A stretch of DNA of 64,000 bases from Candidatus Omnitrophota bacterium. GTDB lineage: Bacteria; Omnitrophota; Gorgyraeia; Gygaellales; Profunditerraquicolaceae. Shown piece by piece: positions 14,054 to 63,977 of this stretch. Positions within the stretch are counted from its first letter, which is position 1, and each line of letters starts with the position of its first letter. Below the pieces are notes generated by a model, which ran no database searches, was not told the origin of the DNA, and was given only the letters and a program-made list of their open reading frames with translations. The DNA lies in contig JAQUOV010000004.1 of NCBI GenBank assembly GCA_028716965.1, forward strand, positions 140,298 through 204,297. The letters are read 5' to 3'. The translations under genes and the position numbers were made by a program.

Positions 14054-14065
14054 AATAACAATTAA

Positions 14066-14270
14066 TCTTTAGGGCAAGGTGACCTGCCTGACGGTAGGCA
14101 GGAATTCCTTACCGGCGGTGCAGCCCGCGAGCTGGCGCTTGGATTCTAGCGCCAGCAGATCCGGTGAGATTCCGGAGCCGATGGTGCCATGCGGATGGCC
14201 ACTGGCGCAATTCAAATTAACGCCAGGTGCGGTCTTCCGTATGTCGAAAGTCCAGATGGAAAAAGATTAA
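14066..14270 (+). ncRNA. FMN riboswitch (RFN element) aptamer
   Basis: Conserved RFN blocks: GGGCAAGGTGA...AATTCC..ACCGGCGGT..AGCCCGCGAGC...GGTGAGATTCCGGAGCCGATGGT...GAAAGTCCAGATGGAAAAAG. Lies immediately upstream of ribBA. Confidence 0.85.
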
Positions 14271-14280
14271 AATTAATACG

Positions 14281-14308
14281 CCCAAAGATTGCCTTTGGGT
14301 TTTTTATT
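14281..14308 (+). terminator. Intrinsic terminator (riboswitch expression platform)
   Basis: Hairpin CCCAAAGattgCCTTTGGG followed by TTTTTTATT. Confidence 0.75.
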
Positions 14309-15550: not shown

Positions 15551-15610
15551 CGGGTAGGCAGTAGATAGAATGCAGTATGCAGGGAACATAGAAAAAGAAG
15601 GGAGAATGAG

Positions 15611-16078: not shown

Positions 16079-16194
16079 TATTATTAATCTCTTCCCGCCT
16101 CAGAATATTCGGCGGGATAATCCTTGTCCGTTTCGCTCGCAAGGACTGCGTTAGATAAAAACTATAAGGTGCTTGATTGGCGCATTAATTACTT

Positions 16195-19197: not shown

Positions 19198-19317
19198 ATT
19201 TAATTAGGTATTTTACGGCACCCCGCGCAGAACGGAATTGCGCGGGTGCCGTGCTTGTGCACGGGGCGTGGTCATCCCGCACAAACCATGCGGGATTTCG
19301 CCACGCAAGATGTAATA

Positions 19318-19392
19318 CGGGGCGTGGCTCAGTTTGGCTAGAGCGCAGCGTTCGGGACGCTGAGGTCACAGGTTCAAGTCCTGTCGCCCCGA
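19318..19392 (+). tRNA. tRNA-Pro (anticodon CGG), CCA not encoded
   Basis: Cloverleaf folded by hand: acceptor CGGGGCG/CGCCCCG, D-arm GCTC..GAGC, anticodon stem CAGCG/CGCTG with loop TTCGGGA, T-arm ACAGG-TTCAAGT-CCTGT, discriminator A. The 3' flank is ACA. Confidence 0.85.
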
Positions 19393-19546
19393 CATAAATT
19401 TAACGAGTGGACAACTTATGAAGTGATAACGACATAAGTTGTAGCGTAAGCGTCCATGAGTTAATCCCGTTATCTGCCAGCGGTACTTTTGGCACAATGC
19501 GCAAAAGTACCGCGGAGCGGTTAGATAACGGGAGATAGCTTAGGCT

Positions 19547-52198: not shown

Positions 52199-52495
52199 GG
52201 AGAGATATTTTACGTGGTTAAGCTTAAAATCCCCATAGCTACTCGTTTTGAATCAAAAATCATTTTTGTTCATTATCCTGCTTCGTAAACTCGGCAGGCC
52301 CTTGCATAGAACGCAAGGACTGCGTTCGATAAAAAATATAAGGTGCTTGATTTCGCGCAGCAAGCGCGCACTTGCCACTCCTGTTTGGCAAGGTGCGCTA
52401 AATTGTTATGGGTGCTCAATTTTTTGCTTGCTTTTTACGTAACCAATGTTATAGTAAAGGTTAACGAATACGCGTAAAATCATAAAGGAGGTAAG

Positions 52496-53344
52496 ATGGA
52501 TTTCAAAGGGCCTATCTTGAAATTTATTTTGATTGGTTTGACTGTTATCTCTTTAGTTTTTGCCGGGGTATTTGTACACTTGTACCAGAATGAACGCCTG
52601 AAAGCTGAAAAGCTGCAATCCCAGGTTGATGAGTTAACCGCCCGGGAACGCGTACTTGAGGATAAGCTTGAGGCTTCCAATAAAAATGTTGCGGAGTTGA
52701 TCTCTAAACTGCAGGAAAGCAAGGACCGGATTGCCAGTATAGGAGAAGAACTGAATAAGGAAAAGTCAACGCGGCAGGACGCGCTGAAGGAGCTGGAGCA
52801 GATTAAGACAGAGATTGAGCAGCAGAAATTCTCGCGCCAGGATTTAGAGAGCAAACTTGGAAAGGCTTTAGCAGAGGGCAATAAGTTGAAAGAACAGCTG
52901 CAGATTATTAACCGGCAAAAAGATGAGCTTGAGGTAAAGCTCAAAGATTTAGAATCCGCTTCTGCCGGCGTAGAGCTGGGAAAGGTAGTAGTAAACAGCG
53001 AGTCTGTTGAGCCTTATCGGGAGGGGAATGCTTCGGAGGCAAAAAAGACGGATTCTTCTTCTCCTGTTTCGCTAAAGGATAAAAAACAGGAAGGCCTTTC
53101 CAAGAACAATCTTTTGGAAGGCAGGATCACGGTAGTAAATAAAGAATATAATTTTGTAGTGATAAACTTAGGTGAAAAAGAAGGCCTGAATAAAGGAGAC
53201 CAATTTTCCGTATATCATGAGGGCAAAATGATCGGTGATATAACAGTGGAAAAGGTCCATGAATCAATGTCTGCCGCGGGTTTTGCAGCAGACCTAAAAA
53301 ATACAATCAAAGAGAACGATATAGTAATACAAAAGGTCAAATGA
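52496..53344 (+). CDS. Membrane-anchored coiled-coil protein with a C-terminal beta-rich domain (hypothetical)
   Basis: N-terminal TM helix, then about 130 aa of heptad-rich E/K/L/Q sequence, then a C-terminal GRITVVNKEYNFVVINLG...GDQFSV domain. Strong GGAGG ribosome-binding site. Confidence 0.55.
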   Translation: MDFKGPILKFILIGLTVISLVFAGVFVHLYQNERLKAEKLQSQVDELTARERVLEDKLEASNKNVAELISKLQESKDRIASIGEELNKEKSTRQDALKELEQIKTEIEQQKFSRQDLESKLGKALAEGNKLKEQLQIINRQKDELEVKLKDLESASAGVELGKVVVNSESVEPYREGNASEAKKTDSSSPVSLKDKKQEGLSKNNLLEGRITVVNKEYNFVVINLGEKEGLNKGDQFSVYHEGKMIGDITVEKVHESMSAAGFAADLKNTIKENDIVIQKVK

Positions 53345-55797: not shown

Positions 55798-55802
55798 TTT
55801 CC

Positions 55803-55990
55803 GCCACCAGGCGGATACCGACGCAATACCATTAAGCGTCGGGTATAAGCCACCAGGCGGACACCGACGCAATTCCGTTAAGCGTCGGGTGTAAGCCACC
55901 AGGCGGACACCGACGCAATATTCGCCACGAGGCGAACACTTGCGCAATACAAATAAGCGCAAGGCGCCAATTAGCGCCAGGTGCAGAGCC
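55803..55990. repeat. Tandem 46-bp hairpin repeat array (2.5 units) plus palindromic hairpin elements
   Basis: Units at 55803-55848, 55849-55894 and a partial third at 55895-55920. Each contains CCGCC..GGCGG and CCGACGC..GCGTCGG hairpins. Further hairpins follow, including CACTTGCGC-loop-GCGCAAGG. Confidence 0.8.
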
Positions 55991-63571: not shown

Positions 63572-63599
63572 TTGACAAAATGTAGTTTTGTAATAGAAT
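63572..63599 (+). promoter_or_regulatory. Candidate promoter with A-rich UP element (TTGACA-16-TAGAAT)
   Basis: aaaaaaaccc-TTGACA at 63572-63577, TAGAAT at 63594-63599. Upstream of the rRNA leader. Confidence 0.45.
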
Positions 63600-63708
63600 A
63601 ACGTTTCCCTTCCAAAAGGGGCAAATTATTGTGAAAATAATTAAGACGCTGTTGACAATTTCCGGCAACTAACCACTATACGACAAATAGGGCGTAAAGA
63701 TAAATTTT

Positions 63709-63742
63709 GCGCCCCGACAGTTTGTCGGGGCGTATTTTTTTT
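63709..63742 (+). terminator. Intrinsic terminator
   Basis: GCGCCCCGACA-GTTT-GTCGGGGCG stem-loop followed by TATTTTTTTT. Confidence 0.7.
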
Positions 63743-63823: not shown

Positions 63824-63977
63824 GAATTGCCAAGCGAGGCCAAGGTAATTCGCCGTAGAGGCGGCGCACTTGCGCAAATCAAATTAGCGCAAGGTGCGTT
63901 AAAGATTACTAAGGTCAATTTCATGAGGTTAGAAATTAAATAAATCACTAGAGCCTTCATACAAATTTCTCAAATTT

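Follow-up and report, generated by a model that had tools for sequence, protein, structure and literature searches.

The 64,000-nucleotide stretch of the Candidatus Omnitrophota bacterium analysed here (assembly GCA_028716965.1, contig JAQUOV010000004.1, positions 140,298 to 204,297), referred to as the window, carries several copies of an apparently undescribed two-hairpin repeat of 46-48 nt that belongs to the Omnitrophota. The repeat is probably a small non-autonomous mobile element of the repetitive extragenic palindrome (REP) or MITE (miniature inverted-repeat transposable element) kind, which is now, or was formerly, mobile and has been kept under structural constraint. Comparison of sequences provides three lines of evidence that point to a mobile origin, namely filled and empty orthologous sites, head-to-tail arrays and nesting at one fixed position. 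One of the copies lies within a flavin mononucleotide (FMN) riboswitch.

The original prediction had described a dispersed family of intergenic, GC-rich hairpins with structurally selected stems. This description is borne out, and the covariation behind it is very strong. The hairpin is a real unit, but it is only one part of the repeat, as a second hairpin lies directly 5' of it and the complete unit measures about 48 nt. In the orientation in which it was originally read (the forward orientation), the 46-48-nt repeat is bipartite, with hairpin 1 (HP1) followed directly by hairpin 2 (HP2). HP1 has a variable stem of 5-6 bp and a loop of 4-5 nt, ACNN or AGAA(A). HP2, a 30-nt imperfect palindrome, begins with CAC and the first arm of a 6-bp stem; a loop of 11 nt (AAWWCMNATWA) separates this arm from its complement, which is followed by a bulged G and by GTG. 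The 9-bp stem that had been proposed is thus present, although its description was incomplete, the conserved bulged G on the 3' arm having been overlooked. The position profile contains an invariant CAC...GGTG foot with an A before the CAC. It is also true that a G/T change in the stem is compensated on the opposite arm (TGGCGC/GCGCCA versus TTGCGC/GCGCAA).

When the window was scanned without filters with a covariance model of the unit (R1), exactly eight full copies were found, with E-values from 6e-13 to 9e-5, and nothing else fell below E = 0.1. Together with one interrupted host unit, these copies are all intergenic, and one of them lies on the minus strand (Table 1). The earlier count of at least five copies was sound as far as it went, and the sequences and coordinates of those five all match the window, but three copies, including the minus-strand one, had been missed. 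Across the eight copies, both helices are paired in 87% of the cells, and 9 of the 15 pairs are changed on both sides. As for chance palindromes, the originally proposed pattern has three matches in the window and its relaxed version four, against none in 100 dinucleotide-preserving shuffles of the window.

Table 1. Copies of the two-hairpin repeat and associated features in the window (scores from covariance model R1 unless stated otherwise)
Feature	Position	Strand	Details
Copy in the FMN riboswitch, at the tip of helix P6	14185-14231	+	45 bits, E = 2.7e-9
HP1-like part of the riboswitch copy	14186-14199	+	
HP2 of the riboswitch copy	14200-14229	+	CAC TGGCGC AATTCAAATTA ACGCCA G GTG
Copy in the 5' leader of tRNA-Pro	19217-19264	-	58.7 bits
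Diverged copy	52353-52399	+	27.1 bits, E = 9e-5; HP2 inner stem of 5 bp (TTGCC/GGCAA), 10-nt loop
Array unit 1	55800-55845 (R1 match 55800-55847)	+	58.6 bits; 2 nt past the mreB stop codon
Array unit 2, truncated HP1	55846-55891 (R1 match 55848-55893)	+	45.6 bits
Array unit 3, host unit	55892-55983	+	From reading of the sequence; HP2 loop split after AATA by unit 4
Array unit 4, inside the HP2 loop of unit 3	55921-55966 (R1 match 55921-55968)	+	59.4 bits, the best in the window
First copy upstream of 16S, HP1 loop AGAA	63742-63789	+	55.2 bits; 243 nt before the 16S start
Second copy upstream of 16S	63851-63898	+	57.8 bits; 134 nt before the 16S start, also given as about 90 nt before the 16S 5' end
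FMN riboswitch aptamer P1-P6, upstream of ribBA	14062-14275	+	RF00050
20-nt hairpin at insertion point L2 of the riboswitch, window only	14083-14102		CCTGCCTGACGGTAGGCAGG
Intrinsic terminator after the riboswitch	14280-14306	+	
tRNA-Pro	19318-19393	+	ARAGORN

The family is wider and more organised than the original prediction supposed, and it is not specific to one genome. Its conservation extends to at least 62 species, and to no fewer than three orders of Omnitrophota. One genome per species, from 185,579 bacterial and archaeal species, was scanned with the pattern CACNNNCGCAAWWYMNWKNNGCGNNNGGTG, in which three middle stem positions are left free on each arm. Such a genome-wide search returned at least 118 loci, which are designated below by L and a number and were retrieved as 8-kb pieces. 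These loci come from at least 63 assemblies by accession prefix, or at least 62 species without a cyanobacterial match that was rejected as chance (one of three pairs complementary, no HP1). Among the listed assemblies, some 50 bear the label Candidatus Omnitrophota or Omnitrophica and about 10 are third-party-annotation (TPA) metagenome-assembled genomes (MAGs) labelled 'uncultured Planctomycetales/Planctomycetia'; the remaining labels are one Deltaproteobacteria, one 'bacterium' and the one cyanobacterium. All three free stem positions are complementary in 113 of the 123 listed matches, more than eight stem variants occur, and HP1 lies directly 5' of the CAC in each of the 113. The same pattern gave a single match in 2.9 million viral contigs, a chance one that lacks both HP1 and stem complementarity, and carriage by phages was rejected on this result.

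According to Seymour et al. (2023, PMC10066038), the bacteria of the phylum Omnitrophota are uncultured, most of them are ultra-small, and their genomes are compact. Three of the listed MAGs appear in the supplement of that study and fall in three orders. These are UBA6233 (class Velamenicoccia, order Gygaellales, GTDB order GIF10), CG1_02_44_16 (order Velamenicoccales, GTDB order UBA1572) and GWA2_41_15 (class Gorgyraia, GTDB order UBA10183), the last being mapped by name only, as its locus comes from another assembly so titled (Hainich-H51-bin333). This spread, together with the number of species, indicates that the family is conserved across a large part of the phylum and is not the property of one genome. 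No description of the element was found in the literature on Omnitrophota, Omnitrophica or Velamenicoccus, including a 2026 preprint on complete Omnitrophota genomes. With Rfam 15 at gathering thresholds, only tRNA was matched in the whole window and the element was not, and permissive scans of the array and the riboswitch gave chance-level matches only, apart from FMN.

The predicted covariation was further confirmed on a larger scale with 136 model hits. Their alignment is fitted to the model, but the seed pattern had left HP1 and the middle of HP2 unconstrained. In this alignment 96.1% of the stem cells form standard pairs and 14 of the 15 pairs are changed on both sides, with 405 compensatory cells. 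None of 500 shuffles reached any of these measures, and slid controls paired in 27-55%. The related loci, about 0.9 Mb in all, contain 141 HP2 cores, and by extrapolation there are perhaps 50-250 copies per genome. Two variant copies were also seen, one in L099 (7639-7684) with an 8-nt loop (TTCCTATA) and one in L116 (2662-2705) with a CGC...GCG foot in place of CAC...GTG. Such variants mean that the family is more tolerant than the search pattern, and that counts based on the pattern are underestimates.

Gain and loss of the repeat can be followed in the closest relatives among the listed loci, which share about 80% DNA identity with the window and are syntenic with it. The spacer between ribBA and ribH holds a complete copy in L036, where it reads TAA ACAGG [CACC...GTAAAC] AAGGAGGAAAT ATG. 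In L009, L086 and L116 the same spacer is empty and consists only of a purine-rich stretch of 16-19 nt. Removal of 44 nt from the L036 spacer leaves one of 16 nt, like that of L116. In the window this spacer is occupied by a filler of about 40 nt (CGGGTAGGCAGTAGATAGAATGCAGTATGCAGGGAACATAG, 15551-15592), which is absent from L009, L086 and L116. The junction seems to be a hot spot for insertion, as both the filler of the window and the hairpin element of L036 are found there. Similarly, the diverged copy of the window is contained in an 81-nt insertion, situated between CTTGA and TTTTYACGTAAC in the spacer (52.2-52.5 kb) from a pseudouridine synthase gene to the next gene, and this insertion is absent from the corresponding spacer of L024. 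Where the filled and empty ribBA-ribH sites are compared, the insertion measures 44-46 nt and there is no clear target duplication.

Between mreB and mreC, the window carries a head-to-tail array of four units with a 46-nt period (55800-55983). The foot pair of the first unit is changed from C-G to T-A (TAC...GGTA), and the arms of the third, CGACGC and GCGCCA, are no longer fully complementary; its loop is split by the fourth. The number of units in this array differs among the window, L016 and L024. The host arrangement is the same in all three, while the nested inner unit of the window differs from those of L016 and L024 in HP1, HP2 stem and loop. Nesting of this kind is found in at least 12 of the 141 copies, at 12 loci, and L010 even contains a triple nesting. 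The inner copy always has the orientation of its host and always follows the AAWW(T) of the host HP2 loop, sometimes with one or two extra loop nucleotides. As HP2 loops make up only a minute part of any genome, the nesting reflects a strong target preference and not chance. A strict HP2 search for adjacent pairs within 150 nt found 13 in which both copies share a strand and no opposite-strand pair; a looser covariance model gave a few weaker opposite-strand hits close to strong copies.

The flanks of these sites suggest integration at asymmetric, purine-rich targets, which in gene orientation (as defined below) may be written as RG^AA. Examples are AGG^AAGGAGG before a Shine-Dalgarno (SD) sequence and TNGG^AATT in the element's own loop, and the AA of the target would become part of the outer T-A pairs of HP1. 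Integration would be precise and without obvious target duplication, with strong preferences of target and orientation that favour the HP2 loop itself and the purine-rich spacers in front of SD sequences and tRNAs.

The repeat has a marked orientation with respect to its neighbours. The open reading frames (ORFs) that flank the 141 HP2 cores were called by a simple script, and 100 copies could be classified. Both flanking genes are antisense to the forward orientation in 73 copies and sense in 12; a further 13 lie between divergent genes, with the CACC strand of the element sense to the gene it precedes, and two lie between convergent ones. Thus, in 86 of the 100, the sense strand just upstream of a gene is 5'-CACC-stem-TWATNGGWATT-stem-GTG-HP1-3', the reverse complement of the forward orientation and here called the gene orientation. 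The strand that had originally been read is correct in sequence but is the minority orientation with respect to transcription. The asymmetry of the target would explain this 86% bias relative to the downstream gene.

In the commonest layout, an upstream stop codon is followed after 0-20 nt by HP2, then by HP1, whose 3' arm ends in CAA, then by the SD sequence GGAGG and, about 7 nt later, by the start codon. A strict filter retains 48 cases of this layout, and the spacing to the start codons is fixed. The upstream stop codon is located inside the element, or no more than 3 nt from it, in 19 cases. Upstream ORFs may stop on a TAA, TGA or TAG of the HP2 loop and so acquire '...TPR*' tails (L011, L012, L021, L033, L038, L091 and L113), which means that gene callers extend these proteins by a few element-encoded residues. 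A few copies, in L098, L110, L080 and L071, include the SD sequence in the HP1 stem itself (TCCTCC...GGAGGA). The downstream genes are diverse housekeeping genes, among them those for L20, NDK, S6, transaldolase, PanD, PFK, PurE, SSB, a Zn-ribbon protein and ArgH, and the ndk, argH, rplT and Zn-ribbon junctions are occupied alike in different species. The second recurrent context is the 5' leader of tRNAs (L043, L059, L070, L086, L095, L102 and L114), where the 3' arm of HP1 overlaps positions +1 to +3 of the tRNA. The loop consensus is identical in both orientations of transcription.

The minus-strand copy of the window belongs to this second context. On the tRNA strand it reads CACC...GTG and then HP1, and it lies between a promoter-like TTGCGT-17-TATACT, read by eye, and tRNA-Pro. 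Orthologous tRNA-Pro leaders carry copies that directly abut the tRNA in L095 and L086, and a nested variant in L027. Between the element and tRNA-Pro, the window has an extra stem-loop (GGCGTGG..CCCGCA-CAAACCA-TGCGGG..CCACGC, 19254-19317), accompanied by a 10-nt duplicate of the tRNA 5' end (CGGGGCGTGG). The window also has a very strong gene-strand bias over its whole length (1-64000), nearly all long ORFs lying on the plus strand, as do the tRNA and the rRNA start, and this matters for the interpretation of element orientation.

Mismatches in the stems bear on the level at which the repeat is recognised. Against 1,904 Watson-Crick cells there are 23 G:T, 29 A:C and 48 other mismatches, so that wobble amounts to about 1% and neither strand is favoured. 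Selection on the RNA of one strand was therefore rejected, there being no bias between G:U and A:C. The lack of wobble bias, together with the orientation-independent loop, fits recognition of DNA, or folding of both strands, better than a function of one RNA strand. In the mobile-element account, recognition would probably take place at the DNA level, by a protein conserved across the phylum that reads the HP2 loop, the bulged G and the CAC/GTG foot. The copies would be co-transcribed with host RNAs and would persist because each folds on its own, being tolerated only where a self-contained stem-loop is harmless. Orthologous copies that are kept while they undergo compensatory changes suggest that a host role has been taken on by some copies; speculatively, it could be that of an RNA end-protecting or insulating hairpin.

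The riboswitch would be a case of such tolerance. Its core, P1-P6 architecture, terminator and ribBA-ribH context are intact, and the downstream genes are ribBA (with DHBP synthase and GTP cyclohydrolase II domains), ribH and nusB. The match to RF00050 scores 54.2 bits (E = 1e-11), below the gathering threshold of 66.2 bits, whereas orthologues score 70-98 bits. The score is low because cmscan cannot bridge the insertions, and positions of P6 and P1 are forced onto inserted sequence. Thus, the element drives a genuine FMN riboswitch below the Rfam threshold.

Alignment of five orthologous riboswitches revealed an invariant core and three insertion points. At L2 only the window is filled, by a 20-nt hairpin that none of the four orthologous riboswitches shares and of which the window and the listed loci contain no second copy. 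L3 contains a full copy in L099 and a degenerate one in L116. At L6 a full copy is present in the window, L009 and L116 and a variant with an 8-nt loop in L099, while L036 has none and only GCCG-T8A-CGGC. The atypical insertion of about 60 nt noticed originally is confirmed by the alignment, which gives 62 nt between GATGGT and GAAAGTCC in the window and 17 nt in L036; the whole P6 insertion extends over about 14186-14247. The HP2 stems of the three full L6 copies are TGGCGC/ACGCCA (window), CCGCGC/GCGCGG and CTGCGC/GCGCAT, with largely compensatory changes. Folding of the leader predicts P1, P2-P6 and the terminator, with the HP1-like segment paired with the 3' flank and the insertion forming one rod on P6. 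The element would here merely lengthen the distal tip of P6, or of P3 in some relatives. The distal ends of P3 and P6 reportedly point away from the ligand-binding junction for FMN, which would explain why the element is tolerated there. The filled and empty variants are natural insertion experiments, and they tell which loops tolerate about 45-90 nt of extra structure.

Several points weigh against a mobile element. No insertion was seen within a single species, so that the element may be mobile at present or may have been so only formerly. Support for the RG^AA target is weak, coming from a flank consensus and a few site pairs, and the riboswitch flanks and some of the tRNA flanks do not agree with it. 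That the element adjoins SD sequences and tRNA +1 so precisely, and has so strong an orientation bias, could reflect function and not choice of target. The window itself is atypical, with seven of its eight copies in the minority orientation, in which the forward strand is sense. Sampling was limited to 8-kb pieces, from at least 118 loci. No mobilising enzyme was found in the window or these loci, and the only IS200-like Y1 gene seen, that of L010, has unrelated terminal repeats. Conservation of loop and foot over several orders is atypical for a selfish REP or MITE, and a binding site selected by the host fits it at least as well. In addition, the orthologous copies in the tRNA-Pro leader and in P6 of the FMN riboswitch are, by eye, better conserved than the neighbouring leader. 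The conservation of these leader copies and that of the loop across orders make selection after insertion, or gene conversion, likely.

The alternative that survives best, though it must be considered clearly less probable than a mobile element, is a host-encoded cis-acting RNA motif. It holds that CACC...GTG and HP1 on the sense strand form a binding or processing site for a conserved RNA-binding protein or RNase of Omnitrophota. Such a motif might control the initiation of translation, uncouple cistrons, or define and stabilise processed 5' ends, and arrays and nesting would be by-products of duplication. The 86 of 100 copies that are sense upstream of a gene speak for it, as does the fixed spacing with which the 3' arm of HP1 ends in ...CAA|GGAGG, and so do the copies with an SD sequence within HP1, the overlap of HP1 with tRNA +1 to +3 and the occupation of the ndk, argH, rplT and Zn-ribbon junctions across species. 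Orthologous copies moreover keep the loop while their stems change by compensation, and loop and foot are conserved across orders. However, about 14% of the copies have the opposite orientation with an indistinguishable loop consensus, among them every copy in a riboswitch or an rRNA leader as well as the mreB-mreC array. Neither strand has an excess of G:U over A:C, wobble being rare on both. Nesting often breaks the loop of a host unit next to an SD sequence, presence and absence differ at orthologous housekeeping-operon junctions, ORFs extend into the element, and no Rfam family matches it.

Another view, which we regard as rather doubtful, is that the repeat is no relative of REP/RAYT systems (REPs with their REP-associated tyrosine transposase, RAYT) but a distinct, self-targeting hairpin module. 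Here integration would be specific for strand and for the hairpin loop, with the HP2 loop acting at once as recognition signal and as favoured site of integration, and a vertically inherited Omnitrophota protein would drive it. The phylum would also have domesticated the module as a regular component of its genes, directly before the ribosome-binding sites of many housekeeping junctions and before tRNAs. The role given to the loop in this scheme is reminiscent of the nick sites of HUH Rep proteins.

A classical REP family, or one of REPINs (paired, inverted REPs), mobilised by a RAYT appears unlikely. The general resemblance to REPs noted originally holds. It agrees with the presence/absence differences, with the arrays and the nesting, and with the ORFs that come to their end within the element. 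REPs as treated by Di Nocera et al. (2013, PMC3733652) share with the element the size class, GC-rich imperfect palindromy, a bulge, the copy number and an extragenic site, mostly between co-oriented genes. The conserved bulge, the multicopy nature and the occasional overlap with gene ends are all in line with this explanation, and one element-bearing genome has an IS200-like Y1_Tnp gene (L010; Pfam E = 8e-17). RAYT genes flanked by unrelated long inverted repeats are also known, according to the same source (PMC3733652). On the other hand, the REP families covered there are tagged with GTAG or CGTC (Di Nocera et al. 2013, PMC3733652), whereas the element has no such tag and its foot is CAC...GGTG. 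Its unit has two non-identical hairpins, and its copies are head-to-tail or nested and, under the strict search, never form inverted pairs (13 same-strand, 0 inverted). It is positioned immediately 5' of SD sequences, while REPs lie mainly 3' of genes, and one consensus extends across several orders. As for the RAYT link to which the original prediction pointed, no RAYT gene flanked by the element or otherwise linked to it was found in the window, the listed loci (at least 118) or 24 metagenome Y1 loci.

The Y1 gene of L010 (5651-6142, minus strand) encodes an IS200-like, RAYT-like protein of 163 aa and lies between ftsW and murG of the division and cell wall (dcw) cluster. It is flanked by two inverted-repeat pairs, GACCGTTTCTA and TAGAACTGTCCCCC, which are unrelated to the hairpin family. 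Relatives of this gene at 59-66% identity were seen in eight metagenome contigs. None of the 24 metagenome loci with such relatives (about 95 kb) carries a copy of the element within flanks of up to 3 kb on either side, which is a weak negative. Searches by tblastn, in which IS200 TnpA and E. coli YafM served as queries, found no Y1 gene in the window, and among the listed loci, at least 118, only that of L010. A transposase enclosed by inverted copies was likewise rejected, as the segments between copies are ordinary genes, for example purD in L007. The supplement of Seymour et al. 2023 holds no COG data for CsrA or RayT.

Finally, chance palindromes or look-alike intrinsic terminators are hardly credible, for although the copies are GC-rich intergenic hairpins and one lies just after a real terminator, shuffled windows gave no match, E-values go down to 6e-13, no T-run follows any copy, the 11-nt loop and the bulge are kept in at least 62 genomes, and both chance matches, from the cyanobacterium and the viral contig, lack HP1 and stem complementarity.

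Other identities were also tried and rejected. Sites for CsrA/Rsm would need, for a GGA in the loop, a T at loop position 4 and a C at position 6, which are present in only 64% and 81% of the copies, and no csrA homologue was found in the window or the listed loci. The element lacks the -10/-35 geometry of a promoter, and canonical sigma-70 promoters are located elsewhere in the window. It is not an intrinsic terminator either, as a terminator scan picks other hairpins.

The preferred mobile element may be compared with several further systems. Like REPs, bacterial interspersed mosaic elements (BIMEs) and REPINs, it is co-transcribed with host genes, occasionally overlaps gene ends and persists for long. 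REPs between malE and malF of E. coli stabilise the upstream mRNA, and by analogy the element could do the same. It differs from a MITE in that its ends belong to different hairpins and there is no clear target-site duplication. The palindrome-associated transposable elements (PATEs) of the IS200/IS605 type are the closest mechanistic analogue, with a hairpin at each end and a putative strand-specific, precise insertion next to a short asymmetric target; for the element, the absence of evident duplication is inferred. Hairpins recognised by TnpA have strict Watson-Crick stems with a conserved extrahelical base, and the element likewise has strict stems and an extrahelical base. Unlike PATEs, the element has two hairpins without sequence relationship, a freely variable HP1 and a preferred target that lies in the loop of its own hairpin. 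A cognate TnpA was not found in the window or the listed loci.

The small dispersed repeat (SDR) elements of cyanobacteria are said to be very small nested repeats. Together with the Rickettsia palindromic elements, they are alike in being tiny non-coding hairpin repeats that insert into each other and into the genes of structured RNAs or of proteins, lengthening helices there or contributing neutral segments, as here. They differ in sequence, size and host phylum, and are lineage-specific, whereas the present family extends over several orders. To our knowledge, targeting next to SD sequences has not been described for SDR or Rickettsia elements.

A repeat at many housekeeping junctions across orders is unexpected in compact genomes, and would be either a successful, precisely targeted parasite or a shared regulatory or architectural signal. 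It has consequences for annotation, as it creates spurious ORFs and extends real ones. As a lineage marker, it could help in assigning metagenomic contigs to Omnitrophota. The mobilising or binding protein, if found, could define a new hairpin-specific system of DNA or RNA recognition.

Some further features of the window were observed. The 16S start lies at the window end, and the first of the two copies before it is directly 3' of a strong terminator-like hairpin (63708-63734 with a T8 run). Upstream of 16S and of both copies there is a promoter-like TTGACA-16-TAGAAT (63572-63599), and a second promoter-like sequence, TTGACA...TATACG, was read by eye near 63651-63680. The hairpin at 63708-63742, of 12 bp and with its T8 run, is 3' of both of these sites and may either terminate the upstream gene or attenuate the rRNA leader. 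A complete dcw cluster occupies about 27-44 kb and was identified only by ORF order and synteny with L010.

A second dispersed element is present at 16085-16185 and 52280-52356, the two being 95% identical over 41 nt (core 16138-16178 and 52312-52352). It consists of a CCTTG...CAAGG hairpin followed by ACTGCGTTNGATAAAAANTATAAGGTGCTTGATT, and may represent a mobile module or one that bears a promoter. The spacer between ribH and nusB, of 116 nt in the window as against 3-17 nt in L009, L086 and L116, is filled by it. It also lies before the gene at 52496, where the orthologous L024 likewise carries it.

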